Positions 6,561 through 41,396 of a stretch of 64,000 nucleotides of DNA are shown here, piece by piece; position 1 is the stretch's first letter; every line of letters begins with the position of its first letter. The position numbers and the translations under genes are program-made. The notes below the pieces were generated by a model. The model had not been told where the DNA came from, ran no database searches, and worked only from the letters and a program-made list of their open reading frames with translations. The DNA comes from Campylobacteraceae bacterium (GTDB lineage: Bacteria > Campylobacterota > Campylobacteria > Campylobacterales > Sulfurovaceae): positions 100 to 64,099 of the forward strand of contig JALWKO010000026.1 in assembly GCA_027081405.1 (NCBI GenBank), in the 5' to 3' direction.

Positions 6561-6660
6561 ACGTCATTGGTCACTGGTCATTGGTCATTGGGGGGGTAAG
6601 GCGTGGAAGCATGCTTCTACTCCATTTTCCCAAATGACCAATGACTAATGACGAATGACC
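6561..6660. repeat. long inverted repeat built of TTGGTCA/CCAATGA heptamer arrays
   Basis: Left arm is gtcattggtcactggtcattggtcattgggg. Right arm is cccaaatgaccaatgactaatgacgaatgac. About 35 nt separates them. Confidence 0.85.
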
Positions 6661-8557: not shown

Positions 8558-8886
8558 TTTGAATGAGGAGCGAGGCGTTGGGCGTTAGGAGTGAGGAGTG
8601 AAGGGGCGCCGCGTGGCGGCGCGGTTTGAATGAGAAATGAGAAATGAGTATAGAAATGAGAAATTTTGAGGTGTTGCTGCGCAACGCTTTTGATGACGGA
8701 TTTTGGATTTTGGATGCTGAATTTCGGTGCGTTGCGTTGCAACGCGTATTGTTGGAGCGGGAATAAATTCCCGCACGGCAGAGCTAAAGCCCTACATCCA
8801 ATATACCAATAATGTCGCCGAAGGCGACACCTCTTACGACTATCGACTATCGACTAGTGACTAATGCCGTCGCCGAAGGCGACACC
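8558..8886 (+). repeat. mosaic repeat element, full copy (heptamer arrays plus fixed hairpins)
   Basis: Modules in order: GAATGAG/GAGTGAG/AAATGAG arrays, ggcgccgcgtggcggcgc, gttgctgcgcaacgc, TTGGATT array, gcgttgcgttgcaacgc, gcgggaataaattcccgc, GTCGCCGAAGGCGAC (8814 and 8869), CGACTAT array. Confidence 0.9.
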
Positions 8887-8888
8887 AT

Positions 8889-9338
8889 TCAATTTCCGGA
8901 AAGGGCATCCAGGGGGCTTTTGTCGTAGTGGCGGGCAGGGTTGGACTTTGAACGGGGGGCTTTGCGCAGGGTCCCTTTCCGACGGGCCTCTTCGATTTTC
9001 TTTTGGGCCAGGCGGTAGTTGGCACAGCCGGTGGGATCGCCATAGCTACAGGCTTTGCGCCAATAGCGCATCGCCTTGGTGTAGTCTTGCCGCACGCCCC
9101 CTTCGGCGTCGGCGTAGATGAATGCCGCGCCGTTGCAGGCGGAGGCTTTGCCCAGAGAGCAGGCCCGCTCCAGATATTTGATCGCGGTGTAGCCGTCGAT
9201 CCGGACCCCGTCTCCGGTGATGTAGTGCACTCCCAGGCTTTCGCACGCCGCCGCATCTCCCGCCGCACAGGCGCTTTGATCCGAAGCCGAGAGACTCATC
9301 GCCGCACATGAAAGGAACATCAAAGCAAACCGTTTCAT
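8889..9338 (-). CDS. Sel1-repeat, cysteine-rich secreted protein (Hcp-like)
   Basis: 149 aa with a signal peptide. Repeated C-x-G...A...Y...AC pattern typical of Sel1/Helicobacter cysteine-rich proteins. Confidence 0.8.
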   Translation of the reverse strand: MKRFALMFLSCAAMSLSASDQSACAAGDAAACESLGVHYITGDGVRIDGYTAIKYLERACSLGKASACNGAAFIYADAEGGVRQDYTKAMRYWRKACSYGDPTGCANYRLAQKKIEEARRKGTLRKAPRSKSNPARHYDKSPLDALSGN

Positions 9339-12493: not shown

Positions 12494-13003
12494 GTGGACG
12501 AGCGGAATTTCGAACGGGCCATCGTCGCGGTGTCGCTGCTGATCGTGGGGATCGGCATTTTCCGGGCGTTGCATCATGCTTCGGATCGGAAACATCCCTC
12601 GGCACCTCCTGCCGAAGAGCGAAACGTCTCGGTGGCATTTGTGCATCCTTCCGGGATCCGCCCCGACTCCCCCGAAGGGATCTACCGCTACGTAGTGGAC
12701 GTGATCGAGCACGGTTCGGCCCGCTTCCATTTCCCGGGTGGGACGATGGAAGGGGGATACCTCCCCCCCGCCGAGGCCCGCAAGGTGGCCTGCTACGTGC
12801 TGCAGCTCGGGGGACACCGCTGCCCCGTGCCGCCGTCGCCGGATGCGCAAATGTACTACACCGGCGCCTGTGCCGGATGCCACGGCAGCGATGGCAAGGG
12901 GCTCGGCGGCCGCTATCCCGACCTGACCCGTCCCCGGTTGCTGGGGATCGAGGAGGCGCTGCGGAAGCGCTCACTTTCCAGCGGTGGAAACGGGACGCAG
13001 TAG
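12494..13003 (+). CDS. membrane-anchored monoheme c-type cytochrome
   Basis: 169 aa. GTG start 5 nt after dctM, an N-terminal TM helix and a CAGCH motif. Confidence 0.6.
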   Translation: MDERNFERAIVAVSLLIVGIGIFRALHHASDRKHPSAPPAEERNVSVAFVHPSGIRPDSPEGIYRYVVDVIEHGSARFHFPGGTMEGGYLPPAEARKVACYVLQLGGHRCPVPPSPDAQMYYTGACAGCHGSDGKGLGGRYPDLTRPRLLGIEEALRKRSLSSGGNGTQ

Positions 13004-14431
13004 ATACGAAGGGCCCATATTGACGCTGTGGTAGACCGTCACGCCGTATTTGCGGACGTAGTATCGCAGCAGGAGCCGCTGCAGTGCGGGTTCGACGGAG
13101 GGGATGAACCAGCCGTCGTTGCTGATGGCGACGATCCGTTCGGGTCGGTCGGCATAGAGCCGTTCGCTGGTCGCTTCGTAGCATACCGCCGAACGCCAGC
13201 GTCTGCCTCCGATGGTGAAATCGGTCGGTCGGGACGCGGGGACGTAATCGGGCGCTCCGTCGAAAAAGATCCGGTTGATCCATTTCCCGGCCCAGCGGGG
13301 GAGGGGGTTGGTCTCCCCGAAGGGGACGAGGACGATTTTGTCGGCGACGGTGGCGTTCCCGTCATGGAAAAACCAGGCGGAGTTGCGGTTGACGCCCTTT
13401 TTCGTATCGTAATAGAGCGCCCCCAGGACGATATCGATCCGGTGGGAGCGCCGTTTGATCGCATCCAGAAGGGCGGGGTGGCGATTGAGGAAGAGGGGGA
13501 GGACCGATTCGGGGAGGATCACCAGCGAGGCGTTGCGCTCGATCGCCCGGTCGATCGCACCGAGGACCCCGTCGATCTGTCCGTTGAGGTTCGCGGGATC
13601 CCATTTGGCTTCGACCGGGACGCGGGTCGAGACCAGCTCCACCGCTCCGGTGGGATCGGCAGGGAGTGCCTCCACTTTCTGCGGGTGCCAGGTTGCGGCG
13701 AAAAGGAGCAGGACCAACACCCCTTCCCCCAGCCGATGCCGTGGGGCACGGCGATGGAGGATCATATCGCCCAACAGAAACGAAGCGCCCAGGAAAAGGG
13801 CGAAGCGGAGCTTGTCCACCCCGAAGGGGGTATGCACGAGGATCAGTTCGGGTTTGAACCAGTCGAAGCCGAAAGGGTGGACGTAGCTCATACCCAAAAG
13901 CGCCAGCGCTTTTGGGTATGAGCTACTAATGAGCAGTGAGCAGTGAGCAGTAAGCAGTTTCGGTATGCGTTGCTTTGCAACGCTCCTGTTCAAAGGGATA
14001 ATGTCGCGGACTCTCCCCAATGACCAATGACCAATGACCAATGACTTTTCTCTTGTGACTTGCAACCTGCGACCGAACCGTAGGCACCGACCGCCCAATC
14101 GTTCGGCGAGCCAGGCGAAGAGCCAGAAATAGATGCCGTAGACCAGCGCCACGGCGAGGACGACGAGGGGGATGACCCAGGGGTGGCCGTAGTGCAGGAA
14201 GCTCATCGCGATCCACCAGAACCAGAGCCCCCCGATCCCCAGTCCGAATCCGAACCACACCCTCCGGTCGCAGTGCGGCAGAAGGGCGAATACGGCGACG
14301 GCGGCGAGCGTTTCGAGAATCGGCAGAGGATGTCTCCACCACGCAAGATAGACGAAGAGCGAAGCGGCCAGAGCCAGAAGCCAGCCCGCTGTTATCCTCC
14401 CGGTGCTAAAATAGTGCGAAATTTTTCCCAT
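12971..14431 (-). CDS. lnt: apolipoprotein N-acyltransferase carrying an in-frame repeat insertion
   Basis: Nitrilase-type triad context (ILPESV, KIVLVPFGE, AVCYEAT) and an N-terminal TM domain. Start taken at MGKISHYF (ATG at 14431, SD ggag). The longer track ORF to 14740 overlaps yajC. Confidence 0.85.
   Translation of the reverse strand: MGKISHYFSTGRITAGWLLALAASLFVYLAWWRHPLPILETLAAVAVFALLPHCDRRVWFGFGLGIGGLWFWWIAMSFLHYGHPWVIPLVVLAVALVYGIYFWLFAWLAERLGGRCLRFGRRLQVTREKSLVIGHWSLGRVRDIIPLNRSVAKQRIPKLLTAHCSLLISSSYPKALALLGMSYVHPFGFDWFKPELILVHTPFGVDKLRFALFLGASFLLGDMILHRRAPRHRLGEGVLVLLLFAATWHPQKVEALPADPTGAVELVSTRVPVEAKWDPANLNGQIDGVLGAIDRAIERNASLVILPESVLPLFLNRHPALLDAIKRRSHRIDIVLGALYYDTKKGVNRNSAWFFHDGNATVADKIVLVPFGETNPLPRWAGKWINRIFFDGAPDYVPASRPTDFTIGGRRWRSAVCYEATSERLYADRPERIVAISNDGWFIPSVEPALQRLLLRYYVRKYGVTVYHSVNMGPSYLLRPVSTAGK
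13902..14095 (+). repeat. truncated mosaic repeat copy located inside the lnt coding sequence
   Basis: GCAGTGA array, gcgttgctttgcaacgc hairpin, four CCAATGA units and a gtgacttgcaacctgcgac tail. Borders are approximate. Confidence 0.8.
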
Positions 14432-16303: not shown

Positions 16304-17275
16304 ATGGAACTGTTCAGCTACAAAAAACCGATCAACTTCATGGGGGCGAGCCGGAAATTCGGCCTCCTCTCATTGGTTCTGGTGCTCCTCTCCTGGGGGC
16401 TGATCTTCACCAAAGGATTCAACTACGGGATCGATTTCGCCGGCGGGACGCTGATCCAGCTCCGCTACGAGGGGAAAGCTCCACTGCAAAAAATCCGCGA
16501 GGATCTCAAAAAGACCCCCGCGTTCAAGGATGCCACCGTCACCTTCTTCGGGAGCGAAAACGAAGTGGTGATCCGGACCAAAAGCAGCTCCAAGACGGTG
16601 GGGAAGGACATGGGGGACCGGGTCCGTACTCTCCTGGCTGATACGGGGAAATTCGAGGTGCGACGGGTCGACATGGTGGGCCCCAAGATCGGAAACGAGC
16701 TCAAGGAAAAGGGGCTTACGGCGATGGTGCTGGCGATCCTGGGGATCCTGATCTACGTTTCGGTCCGGTTCGAGTGGCGCTTCGCCCTGGCCTCGGTCCT
16801 GGCGCTGGTGCACGACGTGAGCATCGCCATGGGGGCGATCGTTTTGGCCGGCGTGGAGGTCAACCTCGACATCCTGGCGGCACTGCTGACCCTACTGGGA
16901 TACTCCCTCAACGACACCATCATCGTCTTCGACAGGATCCGGGAAGGCTTGCAGAAGATCAAGAACCCCGATCTGCCCGAGATCATCAACGAGTCGATCA
17001 CCCGGACTCTCTCCCGGACGGTGCTGACCTCGCTGACCACTTTCTTCGTGGTCCTTTCGCTCTTCCTCTTCGGCGGGGAGATCATCTACGGCTTCAGCTT
17101 CACCATGCTGGTGGGGATCATCGTGGGGACCTACTCCTCGATCTTCATCGCTTCGCCGTTGCTGATGTGGCTGGGCTTCGACGTCAAAGCCTGGCGGGCC
17201 AAAGAGGCCGAGAAGCGGAAGCGGGAGAAAGAAAAAGAGAAAATGCGGGCCATGTACGAGCAGGGAACGCTCTAA
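16304..17275 (+). CDS. secF: protein translocase subunit SecF
   Basis: 323 aa with the SecF motif GIDFAGGT and 6 TM helices. Confidence 0.95.
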   Translation: MELFSYKKPINFMGASRKFGLLSLVLVLLSWGLIFTKGFNYGIDFAGGTLIQLRYEGKAPLQKIREDLKKTPAFKDATVTFFGSENEVVIRTKSSSKTVGKDMGDRVRTLLADTGKFEVRRVDMVGPKIGNELKEKGLTAMVLAILGILIYVSVRFEWRFALASVLALVHDVSIAMGAIVLAGVEVNLDILAALLTLLGYSLNDTIIVFDRIREGLQKIKNPDLPEIINESITRTLSRTVLTSLTTFFVVLSLFLFGGEIIYGFSFTMLVGIIVGTYSSIFIASPLLMWLGFDVKAWRAKEAEKRKREKEKEKMRAMYEQGTL

Positions 17276-17276
17276 T

Positions 17277-17307
17277 GGGTGAGGAGTGAGGAGTGAGGAG
17301 TGCGGAG
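17277..17307 (+). repeat. GAGTGAG heptamer array
   Basis: gggtgaggagtgaggagtgaggagtgcggag, directly after the secF stop. Confidence 0.85.
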
Positions 17308-18477: not shown

Positions 18478-19874
18478 TGCGCCTCGGAGTGCTTCTCGTC
18501 GCCCTCTGGGCGTGGGGGTGGGCACTGGTCCCCGCCGAAGTGGCGCAGTTCCTCCAGAGAGACGGGATCGATCCTTCGCAGGTGAGCCTGATCGTCGCCC
18601 CCACCAAAGGCTCCGAACCTCTGATGGTCCACCTCCCCGACGAACCCCGCCGCCCGGCGTCGGTGATCAAGCTCCTGACCACCTACGCCGCATTGCTGGA
18701 GCTCGGTCCCGATTTCCGCTGGCCGACCCGCTTTTTCGTCACCGGGCGGCTGCGCGGCGGGGTGTTGCGGGGGGATCTGATCGTCAAAGCCTACGGCGAT
18801 CCGACCCTCTCCCGGCGGGATCTGGACCGGATCGCAGAGCGGATCCGCCGGATGGGGATCCGCGAAATCACCGGCGATCTGATCGTCGACGAGAGCTTTT
18901 TCCGTACGGGATCGAAAATCAGTTCGGGGTTTGACAATCATCCCCACAGCGAGTACAACGCCATGCCCGAAGCGTTGATGTTCGAGGACCACCTCAGCAC
19001 CATCGTCGTCGATACCCGCGGCGGTGAGGCACGGGTACACAAAGGGATCCCCGATCCGGGATACCGGCTCCTCAACGAAGTGACGGTACGGAGCGACAAA
19101 CGGTGCCGCGGGCGTTACGGCTGGCCGGCGGTACGCTTCGAAGAAGAGGGGGATACTCCGATCGTCCGCGTGACGGGGACCCTCTCGAGCCGCTGCCGGA
19201 CCCCCCGGGTGATCCGACAGGTGATCGACCACCCCTACACCGCGTTCTACGGAGCCCTCAAAGAAGCGTTCGCAAAGAGAGGGATCGCCTTTTCGGGGCG
19301 CTTGCGGCTGGGGAAGGTTCCCGCCGGGGCCCGTCCTTTGCTGACCCACTACTCCCGCCCTTTGCTGCAGATTGTCGCCAAGACCAACAAGCACTCCAAC
19401 AACCTCTACGCCCGCCACATTTTCCTCCTCCTGGGGGCCAAACGCTACGGAGCTCCGGCCACGGTGGAGAAAGGGCGCAAAGCGGTGCGCGAGATCCTCG
19501 AATCACGCGGGATCCTCGACGATGCGACGGTGCTGGACAACGGGTGCGGACTGAGTCGCCGTACCCGCACCACCGCCCGAACCCTCTACCGGCTCTTAGA
19601 GGACGCCTATCGGCACTTTGCCTGGAGGTGGATGGGAGCCCTTTCGATCGCGGGGATCGACGGGACGCTGCGGCATCGCTTCGTCCGATCGCCGGCCCGC
19701 CGGCACGCCTGGATGAAGACCGGGACCCTCAAAGACGCCAAAAACATCGCCGGATACGTCAAAGGGCGCAGCGGCAGGCTCTATACGGTGGTGATCTTCT
19801 ACAACGGCCTCGCCCGCTGGAAAGGGCGGCAGTTCGAAGATCAGCTCGTCGAGTGGATCGTGAAAAACAAATGA
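18477..19874 (+). CDS. D-alanyl-D-alanine carboxypeptidase/endopeptidase (PBP4, peptidase S13)
   Basis: 465 aa with SxxK (SVIK), SxN (HSNN) and KTG (MKTGT) motifs. Signal peptide present. Confidence 0.85.
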   Translation: MRLGVLLVALWAWGWALVPAEVAQFLQRDGIDPSQVSLIVAPTKGSEPLMVHLPDEPRRPASVIKLLTTYAALLELGPDFRWPTRFFVTGRLRGGVLRGDLIVKAYGDPTLSRRDLDRIAERIRRMGIREITGDLIVDESFFRTGSKISSGFDNHPHSEYNAMPEALMFEDHLSTIVVDTRGGEARVHKGIPDPGYRLLNEVTVRSDKRCRGRYGWPAVRFEEEGDTPIVRVTGTLSSRCRTPRVIRQVIDHPYTAFYGALKEAFAKRGIAFSGRLRLGKVPAGARPLLTHYSRPLLQIVAKTNKHSNNLYARHIFLLLGAKRYGAPATVEKGRKAVREILESRGILDDATVLDNGCGLSRRTRTTARTLYRLLEDAYRHFAWRWMGALSIAGIDGTLRHRFVRSPARRHAWMKTGTLKDAKNIAGYVKGRSGRLYTVVIFYNGLARWKGRQFEDQLVEWIVKNK

Positions 19875-19900
19875 GGAATGAGGAATGAGAAATGAGAAAT
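19868..19900 (+). repeat. AAATGAG/GAATGAG heptamer array
   Basis: caaatgaggaatgaggaatgagaaatgagaaatg. The first unit supplies the PBP4 stop codon. Confidence 0.85.
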
Positions 19901-19949
19901 GTTTGATTTCCTGTTTTGAATTCCCGATTTCCTCCTCTCAAGGGGAGAA

Positions 19950-21152: not shown

Positions 21153-21779
21153 ATGATGAATCAAAACAACAGAGAAGAGGCGATCGATCTGGAAGCGCTC
21201 AAAAAAGACCCCCAGTTTCAGGAGAACCTGAAGCGGCTGGAGGGGGAGATGAAAGCCGAGCGCTCCATCGCCAAAGGGTATCAGCTGCTGGATGCGAAGC
21301 TCTTGATGGAGGCGGAGCAGGAGGAGATCAACGAGATCTTCACCTTCATCGTCAATGAAGCCTTCGATCGTCTGGCGGAGCTGCTCAGCCGGGGGGAAAA
21401 ATTCGACATGGCCGATCCGGAGCAGTGGGCCACGGCCCGGGCGGTCTACGAGCACGGGATCCAGCGCTACAGCGAAAACGACCTCAAGGGGGCCAGGGAG
21501 ATCTTTTTGATCCTCTATTACCTCATCACCGAGAAGGAGTTGCGCGACGCAATGATGATCCACTCGGCGGCGGTGGCGGCGGGGCACGACTTTGACAGTT
21601 TCATCGAGAATTTGGCCGACGTGCGGTCGATCAACCCCAACGACGCCACCGCCTTTTTCATCACCAGTTTCGTCCAGCCGCCGGATATTCTGCTGCAGAT
21701 GTTCGCCAAAGAGGTGGCCGAAGGGGAGGCTTTGCTGGCGAAAATGGAGGAGAACAGCAAAGCTTCGAATGAGGAATGA
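21153..21779 (+). CDS. hypothetical acidic helical protein
   Basis: 208 aa with good coding periodicity. No family recognised. The C-terminal SNEE and the stop are encoded by a GAATGAG array. Confidence 0.6.
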   Translation: MMNQNNREEAIDLEALKKDPQFQENLKRLEGEMKAERSIAKGYQLLDAKLLMEAEQEEINEIFTFIVNEAFDRLAELLSRGEKFDMADPEQWATARAVYEHGIQRYSENDLKGAREIFLILYYLITEKELRDAMMIHSAAVAAGHDFDSFIENLADVRSINPNDATAFFITSFVQPPDILLQMFAKEVAEGEALLAKMEENSKASNEE

Positions 21780-21878
21780 GGAATGAGGAATTCGGAATTC
21801 GGGCGTATCGAGGTACGCCGCTTCGATACTATCGACTATCGACTAACGACTAGCGACTGTGCCGCCTCCGGCGGCACC
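21767..21878 (+). repeat. partial mosaic repeat (GAATGAG array, CGACTAT array, gtgccgcc-tcc-ggcggcac hairpin)
   Basis: Read directly between the hypothetical gene and murC. Confidence 0.85.
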
Positions 21879-23206: not shown

Positions 23207-23460
23207 AGGGGGGAGTGAGAGTCGGTAGTCGTGGCGCCGTTGGCACAGTCATTGGTCATTGGTCATTGGTCATTGGGGGCAGGGCTTCAGCCCTGCATGC
23301 GGGACTAAAGTCCCGCCTCCAAAAGAAAGCGTTGCGAAGCAACACCCCAAAACCATTCCTCATTAAAAAATTGTTATTAGTTGCTGGTTATTCATTACTA
23401 GTTTCCAATCTTCGGTTCCTCATTCCTCATTTCTCATTCCTCACTCCTCACTCGCACGGA
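23207..23460 (-). repeat. mosaic repeat element, full copy in reverse orientation
   Basis: The reverse complement shows the same module order as 8558-8886: AATGAG arrays, gttgcttcgcaacgc, ggaggcgggactttagtcccgc, gcagggctgaagccctgc, four CCAATGA units. Confidence 0.9.
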
Positions 23461-25679: not shown

Positions 25680-25971
25680 AGAATGAGGAACGAGGAGTGA
25701 GGGATCTTTGGGCGCCGTGATACGGCGCGTTTTGAATGAGAAATGAGAAAATAGAAATGAGAAATTTCGGTGCGTAGCGTTCGCTACGCGCTCAATGTTG
25801 GATTTTGGATTCTGGATGTTGGATTGCGGGGTGTTGCGTTGCAACACATATTTTTGGAGGCGGGAATTCATTCCCGCACTGCAGGGCTAATGCCCTGCAT
25901 CCAGTACACCAATGTACCAATAGACCAATGACGTCGCCGAAGGCGACATCACTTGTGACTATTTTTTATCT
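25680..25971 (+). repeat. mosaic repeat element, full copy
   Basis: Same ordered modules, ending in GTCGCCGAAGGCGAC at 25933. Confidence 0.9.
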
Positions 25972-26077
25972 CTTCATTTGTTTTTCTTTGTTCGCGCGAT
26001 AAAGAAAAACGAAACGAAGCAAAGAAAAAGAAAACGCGAGGGACTGGCGTCTTGGTGGAGATGCCATGCGTGGTTGA
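25972..26077 (+). repeat. ~106 nt purine-rich two-hairpin module, copy 1
   Basis: Near-identical to 35144-35249 (cttcatttgtttttctttgttcgcgcgaYaaagaaaaacgaaacgaagcaaagaaaaagaaaacgcgagg...). Confidence 0.85.
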
Positions 26078-26225: not shown

Positions 26226-26405
26226 GTATAATCCCAAATCATGCAGTAGCCACTACGTCATCTGCATCGATCATCGATGGCATGGGCGACACATCCAAAG
26301 CCTCGACGCACCCTCCGGGTGCGCCTACGTTTTGGCTGTGCACCCCTACACACCGAGCATCGACACATCTGACGCACTTTCTACTGCATGGTTTGGGATA
26401 ATCCC
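26226..26405. mobile_element. MITE-like element with ~22 nt terminal inverted repeats, copy 1 (~180 bp)
   Basis: Left end ataatcccaaatcatgcagtag matches the reverse complement of the right end (attatcccaaaccatgcagtag). The ~70 nt core is identical to 40205-40458. Confidence 0.75.
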
Positions 26406-27869: not shown

Positions 27870-28198
27870 AGGAACTGGTGGAGCGGCTCGCCCGCCGGGG
27901 GATCGTCTGCCGGCGTCTGGAACCCTATCCCCTGTCCCGACTGGGGAGTCGCAGACGGATCGACCTCTACCTGGGGGTGGGGACCGACGGGTACTACTGC
28001 ACGGTGGTGCATATCGCACGCAAAAGCCGCATTTTGCGCAAGGACGCCCAGATCTTTCAGGATCTCCGCCATGCGATGGAGGAGAAGGAAGGGCACCATA
28101 TTCCCCGGGCCTACACCCTCATCGACGCGCCGCTGTGTTCCAAGGCCAAAACACAGCTGGAAGAGTGGGGGTGGAAGGTAATTATGGGTAACGGATAA
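27866..28198 (+). CDS. hypothetical 110 aa protein, translationally coupled to the recombinase gene
   Basis: ATGA overlap with the recombinase stop. Coding-like composition. No family recognised. Confidence 0.5.
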   Translation: MKELVERLARRGIVCRRLEPYPLSRLGSRRRIDLYLGVGTDGYYCTVVHIARKSRILRKDAQIFQDLRHAMEEKEGHHIPRAYTLIDAPLCSKAKTQLEEWGWKVIMGNG

Positions 28199-28202
28199 CG
28201 AG

Positions 28203-28368
28203 CAACTAGTAACTAGGAATGAGGAATGAGGAATTTTGGGGCGCTGCTGCGCAACGCGTGTTTATGGAGGCGGGACTTCATTCCCGCAAATTGTAGGCTC
28301 AAAGCCCAGCTCCCAATGACCAATGACTAATGACTAGTGACCCATAACGTCGCCGAAGGCGACACTTC
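28203..28368 (+). repeat. mosaic repeat element, compact full copy
   Basis: GAATGAG array, gcgctgctgcgcaacgc, ggaggcgggacttcattcccgc, ggctcaaagccc, CCAATGA array, GTCGCCGAAGGCGAC at 28349. Confidence 0.9.
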
Positions 28369-28599
28369 TTAGCCCTCTTCTTTGGACTTTTTGTACCGCA
28401 GGATCATCATTAGCGCTTCGTCCTTGAGGAGGAGTTTCTCTTTTTTGAGCGTTTCGATCTCCGGATCGCTCATGGCGATTTCACCTTCTTCTGCTTTGCG
28501 GATCGTCTCGTCCAGTTCGTTGTGTTTCTCGAAAATTTTGGTGAAGTGTGCGTCTTTTTGTTTGAGTTCGCTGATTTCATGGCGGTATTCCGAAAGCAT
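28369..28599 (-). CDS. DUF465 (YdcH-like) small coiled-coil protein
   Basis: 76 aa MLSEYRHEISELKQKDAHF... Strong SD aaggagg 5 nt upstream of the ATG at 28599. Confidence 0.7.
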   Translation of the reverse strand: MLSEYRHEISELKQKDAHFTKIFEKHNELDETIRKAEEGEIAMSDPEIETLKKEKLLLKDEALMMILRYKKSKEEG

Positions 28600-34689: not shown

Positions 34690-35143
34690 TGATGGGGAAT
34701 GGAGAATTGAGGATGGAGAATTGAGGGGGCGTTCGATGGAGGCGTTTTGAATGAGAAATGAGAAATGAGAAATTTTGGGGCGCCGCAATGCGGCGCGGTT
34801 GGATGTTGGATTGCGGGGCGTTGTTTCACAACGCGTACTTTTGGAGGCGGGACCTCAGTCCCGCAATGCAGGGCTAAGTTGCTCCCAATGACTCTTTTAA
34901 TGAATAGCGAAGAGTGAAGAGTGAAGAATTGCGGTGTGCCGCACGGCGGTGCGATTTGATGGTGGATGTTGAATGTTGAATTTTGGATGATGGATTAAGG
35001 GGCGTTGCTTTGCAACGCGTTTTCAAACGTCAAAGAGGATCGAAGCCCCGTTCAAACGACAAACGACATACCCCCTAATGACCAGTGACCAATGACGTCG
35101 CCGAAGGCGACACTTCTTGCGACTTCCGGCTCAATGTTTTTAC
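34690..35143 (+). repeat. two tandem mosaic repeat copies
   Basis: Same ordered modules appear twice. Exact GTCGCCGAAGGCGAC at 35097. Confidence 0.9.
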
Positions 35144-35249
35144 CTTCATTTGTTTTTCTTTGTTCGCGCGACAAAGAAAAACGAAACGAAGCAAAGAAAA
35201 AGAAAACGCGAGGTACTGGCGTCTTGAAGAAGATGCCATGTGTGGTTGA
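35144..35249 (+). repeat. ~106 nt purine-rich two-hairpin module, copy 2
   Basis: Near-identical to 25972-26077. Most differences fall in a hairpin loop. Confidence 0.85.
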
Positions 35250-35454
35250 ATAAAAGATAGAAATGAGAAATCTCGGTGCGTTGCTGCGCAACGCTTTTTT
35301 TTGGAGGCGGGAATTCAGTCCCAGGATGAAGGGCTAACTTGCTCCCAATGACAAGTGACCAATGACGAATGACAAATATCGTCGCCGAAGGCGACACGTC
35401 TTGCGACTTGCGACGTGAGGCCCGTAGGGCCGTGCTTGCGACTTAAGAGGGAGA
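35250..35454 (+). repeat. mosaic repeat element, third copy in this spacer
   Basis: AAATGAG units, gcgttgctgcgcaacgc, ggaggcgggaattcagtccc, CCAATGA-type array, GTCGCCGAAGGCGAC at 35381, CTTGCGA array. Confidence 0.9.
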
Positions 35455-40204: not shown

Positions 40205-40458
40205 TTACCCCAAACTATGCATTAGCCAGTACGTCATTTGCATCGATCATCGATGGCATGGGCGACACATCCAAAGCCTCGACGCACCCTCCGGGTGCGC
40301 CTACGTTTTGACTTGGCCTACGCGGCTTCGCTACGCTTCGACCGCTTCGGGTTCGAAGCTACAAACAACAAGCAGTTGTTGTTTGCTTGACGCTTCTCCC
40401 CCCTACACACCGAGCATCGACGCATCTGACGCACTTTCTACTGCATAATTTGGTTTAT
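40205..40458. mobile_element. MITE-like element, copy 2 (~255 bp, carries a nested ~85 nt insertion)
   Basis: Same terminal inverted repeats (ccaaactatgcattag / ctactgcataatttgg) and the same core as copy 1. Extra segment at about 40305-40395 includes the palindrome caaacaacaa-gcag-ttgttgtttg. Confidence 0.75.
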
Positions 40459-41318: not shown

Positions 41319-41396
41319 AGTGAAATGAGGAATGAGGAATGAGTAATGAGTAATGAGTAATGAGTAACGGGCGATGGGTAACGAAGAATGAGAAAT
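41319..41396 (+). repeat. AAATGAG/GAATGAG/TAATGAG heptamer array (about 9 units)
   Basis: gagtgaaatgaggaatgaggaatgagtaatgagtaatgagtaatgagtaac... Confidence 0.9.

Follow-up and report, generated by a model that had tools for sequence, protein, structure and literature searches.

We analyzed a 64,000-nt stretch of genomic DNA (the window; positions 100–64,099 of contig JALWKO010000026.1, assembly GCA_027081405.1) from a Campylobacteraceae bacterium of the family Sulfurovaceae, in which the apolipoprotein N-acyltransferase gene, lnt, carries repeats of the kind that otherwise lie between genes. Comparison with the repeats of the window and with orthologous genes confirmed, at the level of sequence, that about 50–65 residues of Lnt are encoded in frame by the genome's own hairpin-and-heptamer repeats. 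The resulting block sits in the loop between transmembrane helices 4 and 5 (TM4 and TM5), which has two to three residues in most Lnt proteins and ∼65 here, illustrating how much repeat DNA, selfish or structural, can be accommodated in a conserved membrane enzyme. A preliminary description of this DNA had reported a repeat copy inserted in lnt; its repeat origin and reading frame stand, but the block is not a single copy, as its TM5-side part recurs at the same site in relatives. We think it likely that the block is a layered compound repeat, similar to repetitive extragenic palindromic (REP) sequences and bacterial interspersed mosaic elements (BIMEs), carried in a permissive loop as a passenger of a functional Lnt.

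The gene and the parts of the block are as follows (window coordinates; a strand is given where one was assigned):

12971–14431, − strand: lnt open reading frame (ORF), 486 amino acids (aa), stop-free translation
14102–14182, − strand: TM4 of Lnt (residues ∼84–110); native, upstream of the block, and conserved in alignment A1 (31 sequences)
13913–14098, − strand: repeat-derived block (approximately residues 112–173) in the predicted cytoplasmic TM4–TM5 loop; no counterpart in repeat-free orthologs
14047–14098: tail of CTTGYGA-like units (TTGTGACTTGCAACCTGCGAC) with a basic peptide (GGRCLRFGRRLQVTREK); ∼66% similar to 35359–35422
14015–14046, + strand: lineage-specific CCAATGA ×4.1 array with flanks CCCC and CT; read in lnt as SLVIGHWSLG
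13984–14014: 31-nt spacer, possibly a degenerate form of the part of intergenic composites that bears the GGCGGGA hairpin
13967–13983: GCGTTGC-TTT-GCAACGC hairpin (GCGTTGCTTTGCAACGC), member of a dispersed family; read in lnt as SVAKQR
13927–13958, + strand: heptamer array adjoining TM5 (TAATGAG, CAGTGAG twice, CAGTAAG); read in lnt as KLLTAHCSLLIS
13883–13926: junction palindrome with perfect 21-bp arms (13883–13903 and 13906–13926) and a 2-nt loop

The block and its intergenic relatives

The likeness of the block to the intergenic repeats of the window is beyond chance. Positions 14015–14046 are complementary to 23247–23278 (32/32) and to 6563–6593 (97%), and the hairpin motif GCGTTGC-NNN-GCAACGC has 11 copies in the window with up to two mismatches, compared with 0.4 expected (none of 100 shuffles reached 11). 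The modules named in the preliminary description (an array, a hairpin, four CCAATGA units, and a tail) are all present on the + strand. Their order in lnt (NNNTGAG-type array, TTT, GCGYTGC hairpin, spacer, CCAATGA array, CTTGYGA tail) is that of the intergenic composites at 28195–28380, 35250–35420, 25680–25965, and 8560–8890. The spacer and tail resemble intergenic copies weakly (66%–74%), with 13958–14011 matching 8722–8776 at 74%.

Tandem Repeats Finder reported TGAGCAG ×4.1 at 13930–13958 and CCAATGA ×4.1 at 14017–14045, both on the + strand, where the second array reads CCCC-(AATGACC)x4. The + strand letters between the TGAGCAG array and the GCGTTGC hairpin are TTTCGGTAT, those 3′ of the CCAATGA array are TTTTCTCTTGTGACTTGCAACCTGCGAC, and the tail continues as ...CTTGTGACTTGCAACCTGCGAC at ∼14053–14074 on the same strand. 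In the protein, IPKLLTAHCSLLISSSYPK and SLVIGHWSLGR are peptides of block residues 112–173, and the peptide quoted earlier (GGRCLRFG...SSSYPKAL) is an exact match to the translation. The TGA-rich strand had been described as antisense to lnt, and stop counts in the block agree: zero, one, and two in the three frames of the lnt strand, compared with two, six, and five on the opposite strand.

The window genome is unusually repeat-rich, with ∼34 period-7 arrays in 64 kb (Tandem Repeats Finder) compared with ∼11 outside lnt in ∼500 kb of other loci. Besides the two arrays in lnt, essentially all are intergenic; the exceptions lie in ORFs with low GC content at third codon positions (GC3), which are probably spurious, or at doubtful start codons. 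Arrays adjoin perfect hairpins in eight of 21 cases (0.8 expected). Hairpins of the types GTCGCCGAAGGCGAC and GGCGGGA..TCCCGC have at least five window copies each, and the repeats cluster in REP/BIME-like mosaic composites at 8560–8890, 25680–25965, 28195–28380, and 34690–35420. A Pfam scan of nine low-GC3 ORFs in the window returned no transposase domain and no REP-associated tyrosine transposase (RAYT) domain, but only DUF465.

Several intergenic arrays lie at gene ends. Those at 19869–19901, 21766–21791, and 41322–41367 contain TGA in all three frames and hold or start at the stop codon of the upstream gene, with the stop TGAs (19872–19874, 21777–21779, and 41326–41328) falling within the first or second heptamer unit. 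The TAA of secF (17273–17275) is 2 nt before the array at 17277–17307. Stop-carrying arrays may act as an all-frame stop pad, or may merely mark places where repeats are tolerated. Between two same-strand genes, opposed GTCATTG and CAATGAC arrays (6563–6593 and 6629–6659) form a 31-nt inverted repeat with 90%–97% complementarity, and the stop of the gene upstream of 6563–6593 is within a small hairpin (GTAACGAA...TTCGTTAC) adjoining the first array. Two longer dispersed repeats, 25965–26077 with 35137–35249 (113 nt, 92%) and 26233–26337 with 40209–40313 (105 nt, 94%), adjoin the largest mosaic clusters, and the ORFs overlapping these repeats are low in GC3 and matched nothing in Pfam.

At the RNA level, the fold has a z-score of −3.6, and no Rfam family matched anywhere in the window at gathering thresholds. 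A promoter-like TTGCAA-N16-GATAAT (9/12 matches) is present on the + strand at 13975–14002, antisense to lnt, with a −35-like hexamer that falls within the GCGTTGC hairpin; two such sites occur in 900 nt, compared with 0.2 expected. We rejected a terminator role for the array plus hairpin, since no T-tract follows the palindrome on either strand, and a role in programmed frameshifting, since the heptamer units lack the X XXY YYZ pattern of slippery sites.

The loop in orthologs and the junction palindrome

We compared the window gene with 85 other Sulfurovaceae lnt loci (80 of them from one-per-species genomes), giving a set of 86 from which loops were extracted by alignment. Measured from E110 to HPF, the loop is 78 aa in the window, the longest of all 86, compared with a mode of 28 aa (∼19 species), 32 aa being the other frequent length. 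Among 66 diverse representatives of Lnt, the segment from Y98 to F189 (92 aa in the window) has a median of 32 aa, is 31–33 aa in 55/66, and reaches at most 52. Across both sets the equivalent loop is 40–60 aa shorter than ours, and no segment homologous to the block was found in repeat-free relatives, as the preliminary description had anticipated. A phmmer search of 1.84 billion representatives gave Lnt alignments that break at query positions ∼112–116 and resume at ∼165–179.

Smaller versions of the block occur at its exact site in relatives. A heptamer array of about four units is present in 27/86 lnt genes (the window and 26 other loci, two of which are the same contig), always 10–14 nt upstream of the K codon of K-A-L. 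The units of this array, rich in pyrimidines, are specific to each species: CTGCTCA in the window, TTCTCAA in Nitratifractor salsuginis (N. salsuginis), and TTCTCCA, CTTCCAT, CAACATC, CTCTTCA, CTACTCC, CTGCTCC, CTCATCA, CTCCTAC, and others elsewhere. The GCGTTGC-NNN-GCAACGC hairpin lies just upstream of the array in ∼10 species and in the same frame (N-[KR]-S-V-A-x-Q-R-I-P), at loci L004, L005/22, L014/15, L016, L024, L035, L038, and L042; L024 has a compensatory GTATTGC/GCAATAC version. The basic N-terminal part of the window loop (ERLGGRCLRFGRRLQVTREK) resembles EWLGGQLARFLLRQRDKDK at the same place in L006, and the basic peptide of the tail is partly common to L006 and L004, the other long-loop loci of the Nitratifractor clade. 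What is specific to the window is essentially the GTCATTG/CCAATGA ×4 array with its spacer (∼54 nt): the array is identical to intergenic copies in the window, and its CCAATGA unit is absent from lnt in all 85 other loci. In one pair of sister species (L007 and L008), the arrays differ by exactly three CTTCCAT units, or 21 nt, keeping the frame. These data indicate a long-lived, tolerated repeat hot spot rather than a one-off insertion.

On a neighbor-joining protein tree inferred with the loop masked, array and palindrome states are patchy. The Nitratifractor clade has array and palindrome nearly throughout, except for L013 with a plain 28-aa loop, and array-bearing and array-free species of Sulfurovum are interleaved. 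In N. salsuginis (CP002452; L001), an intergenic ATTCTCA ×4.6 array at 2379–2449, 8 kb from lnt, has the same unit as its lnt array, a hint that arrays within and between the genes of one genome have units in common.

The TM5 side of the block ends in the junction palindrome. Its distal arm, GCGCTTTTGGGTATGAGCTAC, consists of the conserved TM5 codons of lnt (A-L-L-G-M-S-Y), and its proximal arm is the reverse complement, read as S-S-Y-P-K-A. Part of what looked like an insert is therefore a reverse-complement copy of lnt itself, and SSSYPKAL, given earlier as the edge of the insert, is one arm of the palindrome, the other being ALLGMSY of lnt. Counterpart palindromes of 13–23 bp are present in 18 other species with arms that change in concert, in pairs such as SSWLKA/LLTMSY (N. 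salsuginis), SSYLKG/LLSMSY, LTLKA/LLVLS, and LIPKA/LLGLS. In a gapless alignment of 19 sequences chosen for the presence of a palindrome, two of them out of register, covariation between arms scored 0.249, whereas shuffles gave 0.146 (none of 500 as high) and slid arms no more than 0.146; double-sided changes numbered 37, compared with 18 expected.

Palindromes of at least 12 bp are found in 15/27 array-bearing loops, 4/59 array-free loops, and 0/300 shuffles. In three of the four array-free cases (L016, L058, and L079), the loop exceeds 28 aa and contains other hairpins or partial heptamer units. Repeat-free loops have only a native 7-bp quasi-palindrome, AAAGCCC..GGGCTTT, inherent in K-A-L-G-L-L. 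The four longest stems consist entirely of Watson–Crick pairs (83/83, no G-T), a pattern that favors a process at the level of DNA over selection for an RNA structure.

The junction palindrome is also a place where contigs end, as observed for P0050, P0037, and P0125. Among short Lnt proteins of 311–312 aa (P0037, P0050, and P0097), we rejected an origin by frameshift: two are contig ends at the palindrome, and the third (L090) has unrelated upstream DNA, as expected of a rearrangement or chimera. L090 (JGI Ga0553216_100287, 1200–1290) is an N. salsuginis-type lnt with an ORF that starts at the ATG within the junction palindrome; it keeps the TTCTCAA/TTCTCGA array and the palindrome, and an unrelated, divergent VTT-domain gene replaces TM1–4. 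Either this locus was rearranged with a breakpoint at the repeat, or its assembly is chimeric. A metagenome scan for strain variants or empty sites, using a degenerate pattern for the end of TM4, yielded three unrelated matches only. Ten lnt clusters at 90% identity contained no array-linked length variants of ±7 aa; length differences reflected start-codon calls or contig ends, and the 42–47 aa "members" of these clusters are unrelated peptides.

Identity and fold of the host protein

The exact 486-aa protein is recorded for a Nitratifractor sp. metagenome-assembled genome as apolipoprotein N-acyltransferase, and lnt lies next to yajC-secD-secF in divergent orientation, an arrangement also found in N. 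salsuginis and Sulfurovum. The product matched NF008934, the epsilon-type Lnt model of NCBIfam, with E = 2e-122 and 409.5 bits, just under the equivalog cutoff of 427, an expected effect of the ∼65 extra residues; the alignment ran from residue 4 to 482 over 409 profile positions, leaving ∼70 residues in surplus. The block alone thus takes a family-model score below its cutoff, a warning for annotation. TIGR00546 matched above its cutoff of 132.9 (153 bits, E = 1.2e-44). The nitrilase-type Glu-Lys-Cys triad (E308, K365, and C417) is invariant in alignments A1 and A4 (67 sequences).

An AlphaFold2 model built with 31 homologs had a mean predicted local distance difference test (pLDDT) score of 87 and a predicted template modeling score of 0.87, and its top Foldseek matches were Lnt of E. 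coli and P. aeruginosa (template modeling score 0.60–0.68, E ∼1e-14). The model has seven TM helices, not eight, followed by the nitrilase domain at the end; TM8, at the C terminus of E. coli Lnt, has no counterpart in it. We can confidently describe the predicted product as a polytopic membrane domain joined to a CN-hydrolase fold, that is, as a normal Lnt apart from the block. Fold and triad are intact despite ∼65 residues of translated hairpins and microsatellites. The preliminary description had called lnt essential, which is not established here: lnt is dispensable in H. pylori, the sole member of the phylum tested, which has LolF (PMC7240156).

A profile alignment with E. coli Lnt (5xhq) places the block at the TM4–TM5 connection. 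The nitrilase domain of Lnt is periplasmic; counting back through TM7, TM6, and TM5 of the model therefore puts this connection in the cytoplasm, a placement that fits the charge of the block (13 K+R compared with 2 D+E; net ∼+11). In the model, the TM4 helix extends over residues 84–136, followed by coil (137–157) and helices at 158–167 and 171–181 that lead into TM5; pLDDT is 49–57 across residues 131–170, and the remainder of Lnt is confident. The expectation of a basic cytoplasmic loop after TM4 was borne out, but the additional TM helix proposed for the hydrophobic end of the insert is not predicted, and we rejected it in favor of an extended TM4 helix and a low-confidence loop. Judged by the model, the block is a basic, largely unstructured linker. 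For the enzyme it is most likely a tolerated passenger, not a functional domain; the TM4–TM5 loop would mark a permissive cytoplasmic insertion site in Lnt.

The gene itself is intact. As first described, the ORF is uninterrupted, with 486 aa and no stops, and a frameshift or stop that would make lnt a pseudogene did not appear in a second assembly, GCA_054006255.1 (locus L089). This assembly is 99.945% identical to the window over 5461 nt, with no indels and with all three single-nucleotide polymorphisms (SNPs) outside lnt, so the segment is not an assembly artifact; the identical Lnt protein is present on five contigs.

Other features were noted in and around lnt. Its 3′ end (12971–13003) overlaps by 33 nt the 3′ end of a convergent ORF (12494–13003), which is cytochrome-c-like in the L089 annotation with only a faint PF00034 match. 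A second variable region of Lnt follows TM6 (A1 columns ∼280–305), where P0002, P0005, and P0009 have 15–25 additional residues. The 485-aa homolog P0021 has a C-terminal extension, ...RPTTNDQRLTTNAPTAPSTPA, with a 7-residue period, suggestive of read-through into a heptamer array that follows lnt.

Origin of the block and known repeat systems

Our comparisons showed a layered and partly ancient structure, read in frame in an intact gene at a permissive and, by the model, cytoplasmic site, with arrays that change in frame-preserving steps, as in the three-unit difference noted above. We suggest that the block is a compound, non-autonomous hairpin-plus-heptamer repeat assembled in layers. The old layer, found in many Sulfurovaceae, would be the four-unit array abutting a palindrome that uses the first TM5 codons of lnt as an arm, with the GCGTTGC hairpin upstream of the array in ∼10 species; the young layer would be the CCAATGA ×4 array and spacer, probably copied in by short-homology recombination or template switching. 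Arrays would turn over by replication slippage, with survivors limited to frame-keeping changes in multiples of three units, and cycles of contraction and re-expansion would spread an altered unit through all copies. Intrastrand template switching would lengthen the palindromes and keep them perfect, the constrained TM5 arm overwriting the unconstrained arm in the cytoplasmic loop. Further modules may be acquired from intergenic copies by short-homology recombination, and selection would filter length and orientation, since the pyrimidine-rich, stop-poor strand must be the sense strand.

Several observations weigh against this account. Slippage, template switching, and recombination are processes that we infer, not events that we observed. 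The 22-nt hairpin module is 82%–95% identical between the window and Sulfurovum, compared with 58%–75% for flanking codons and 30%–60% for third positions, and Sulfurovum loci have no hairpin copy other than that of lnt within 6–20 kb. The TM4–TM5 loop holds 22 of the 33 heptamer arrays in 565 kb around lnt, and arrays are near-perfect even though units differ between species. The arm covariation comes from sequences selected for palindromes, as noted above. The module identity, the concentration of arrays in one loop, and their near-perfection suggest nucleic-acid-level selection, horizontal spread of a loop cassette, or an active site-specific process; the conservation of the hairpin across genera could be explained by nucleic-acid selection, self-correction of the palindrome, or horizontal cassette spread.

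We weighed these possibilities along with other explanations of the block. The proposal of the preliminary description, a single recent insertion of a discrete element into an empty lnt, in the manner of a miniature inverted-repeat transposable element (MITE) or a Rickettsia palindromic element (RPE), now seems quite unlikely. It would account for the 32-nt perfect match to an intergenic array, for a module order shared with the composites, and for the longest loop of 86, and in-frame RPE and MITE insertions are documented (PMC10969869). But the block does not qualify as a MITE because no terminal inverted repeats bracket it; beyond the palindrome, a search of 13840–14160 gave a single 10-nt match at 90% (13889–13898 with 13958–13967). 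No flanking direct repeat, or target-site duplication, is evident, and layering blurs the boundaries of the block. The TM5-side half (array, palindrome, and GCGTTGC hairpin) occupies the same site and frame in many orthologs, and the basic N-terminal part of the loop is common to L006 and partly resembled by L004, leaving at most ∼54 nt lineage-specific. The neighbor-joining tree suggests that array and palindrome predate the window lineage, and the nine low-GC3 ORFs scanned in the window contain no transposase domain. A contingency locus, in which heptamer slippage by ±1 unit toggles lnt and varies tri- versus di-acylated lipoproteins, strikes us as very unlikely: no frameshift at the array is seen in any of the 86 species-level lnt ORFs, two near-identical assemblies have the same arrays, none of the ten 90% clusters has array-linked length variants, four copies are few for efficient slippage, and the sole interspecies difference seen (three units, L007/L008) keeps the frame. 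This explanation draws on the two 7-nt arrays of about four units in the ORF, with a unit that is not a multiple of three and an adjoining replication-stalling palindrome; on near-perfect four-unit arrays kept at one intragenic site in 27 lnt genes with concerted unit change; and on the dispensability of lnt in H. pylori, which has LolF (PMC7240156). Metagenomic contigs also end repeatedly at this hairpin, but contig ends at long palindromes are an expected assembly artifact. The idea of a decaying pseudogene or an assembly artifact is effectively refuted, even though repeats are classic misassembly sites and the lnt of L090 is truncated exactly at array and hairpin: the ORF is intact, the triad residues E, K, and C do not vary, the other 420 residues model confidently, and the five contigs and the second assembly (three SNPs, no indels) agree.

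Selection on the nucleic acid itself deserves separate consideration. Hairpins kept in lnt for a cis-acting function of their own (protein binding or DNA topology as in REPs, an effect on mRNA stability, a pause in translation between TM4 and TM5, or antisense promoter activity) are, taken jointly, an unlikely explanation. Stem nucleotides are conserved well above flanking synonymous sites, both hairpins show compensatory changes (GTATTGC/GCAATAC in L024, and covariation of the junction stem), and the fold z-score of −3.6 and the promoter-like site on the + strand (13975–14002) point the same way. However, ∼59/86 orthologs lack arrays and ∼19 have plain 28-aa loops, and the element is therefore dispensable; perfect Watson–Crick stems without G-U pairs fit DNA-level mutation better than RNA-level selection, Rfam gave no match, and the promoter match is just 9/12. 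Rather unlikely, too, is an undescribed, transposase-independent mode of repeat generation in which mosaics grow in situ and do not transpose, counted jointly with its variant involving a selected element or switch. Here, the native quasi-palindrome (AAAGCC..GGCTTT of K-A-L-G-L-L) would be repeatedly extended by template switching to a long perfect palindrome, and a self-homogenizing heptamer array beside it would later recruit dispersed hairpin modules. In that variant, selection could maintain the conserved hairpin-plus-array cassette as a cis-element or switch within lnt. We favor the layered passenger repeat over these alternatives. The 86-species comparison offers a natural time series, from repeat-free loops through array and array plus palindrome to the full mosaic, that can be used to study the origin of REP/BIME-like mosaics, the recruitment of coding DNA by palindromes, and concerted evolution of an array in frame.

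In-frame translated palindromic repeats are a known kind, because intragenic REPs and RPEs have been documented (PMC3733652). In that survey (Di Nocera et al. 2013), REP units are GTAG- or CGTC-tagged, and both types are present in Sulfurovum sp. NBC37-1; REPs may supply stop codons to flanking genes; in Thauera and R. conorii, 43–82 aa are encoded by intragenic clusters; RPE-4 and RPE-6 belong to the CGTC REPs; Lnt of Sphingopyxis alaskensis contains a CGTC-1 REP (aa 152–160; supplement); and CGTC repeats are reported without a dedicated transposase (PMC3733652). REPs and BIMEs, with palindromic units of 20–40 bp, resemble the lnt repeats in being short, palindromic, high-copy units that mix with other motifs in mosaics and are occasionally intragenic, and both are GC-rich, mostly at gene 3′ ends, and sometimes provide a stop codon. 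In contrast to REPs and BIMEs, the hairpins here are interspersed with tandem heptamer arrays, one palindrome is made of codons of the host gene, one intragenic site is occupied family-wide, and no RAYT was seen in the scans of nine low-GC3 window ORFs. In lnt, the GCGTTGC hairpin is flanked by AAAA and ATACC, with neither GTAG nor CGTC as an unpaired tag; a C usually precedes GTCGCCGAAGGCGAC, giving CGTC, but the tag overlaps the stem; and the junction palindrome starts with GTAG, but base-paired. We therefore call the block REP/BIME-like, its membership in the GTAG/CGTC superfamily being unproven.

The preliminary description had likened the block to RPEs, which is fair as a functional analogy, as in-frame translated repeats are documented. 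Both are palindromic and in frame, at a permissive place of a conserved gene whose protein is apparently functional (Ogata et al. 2000; PMC10969869). However, RPEs are discrete elements of ∼100–150 bp that form defined families in many genes, whereas the lnt block is modular and layered, contains microsatellite arrays, and occupies one site of one gene in many species; the likeness is functional only.

Heptameric simple sequence repeats (SSRs) are over-represented in intergenic DNA of Xanthomonas, Nostoc, and Calothrix, and these repeats, with the short tandemly repeated repetitive (STRR) heptamer sequences and small dispersed hairpin repeats of cyanobacteria, share with ours an intergenic excess, variation among close relatives, and occasional inverted pairs (PMC4692102). 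They differ in phyla and units and are described as intergenic, with no conserved intragenic in-frame site reported. The STRR2 unit is presumably TTGGTCA, which we take to be a rotation of GTCATTG. Our search of full-text literature found no paper joining Sulfurovum with heptanucleotide repeats or Nitratifractor with tandem or intergenic repeats.

Intrastrand template switching is known from E. coli and yeast to perfect imperfect inverted repeats, or quasipalindromes (PMC7202029), and would explain both the unconstrained arm that mirrors the coding arm and the perfect stems. The process is known as point or short-patch events in laboratory reporters, whereas here it would have produced 13–23 bp, repeatedly or persistently across species. 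Contingency loci of Haemophilus, Neisseria, Campylobacter, and Helicobacter likewise have an intragenic tandem repeat with a unit that is not a multiple of three, but lnt is a housekeeping enzyme gene with about four units and no copy-number or frame variation seen. Set against these known systems, four features appear to be new: hairpins that alternate with heptamer arrays within a gene, a single intragenic site occupied throughout a bacterial family, an in-frame array that evolves in concert, and a palindrome with conserved codons of its host gene as an arm.

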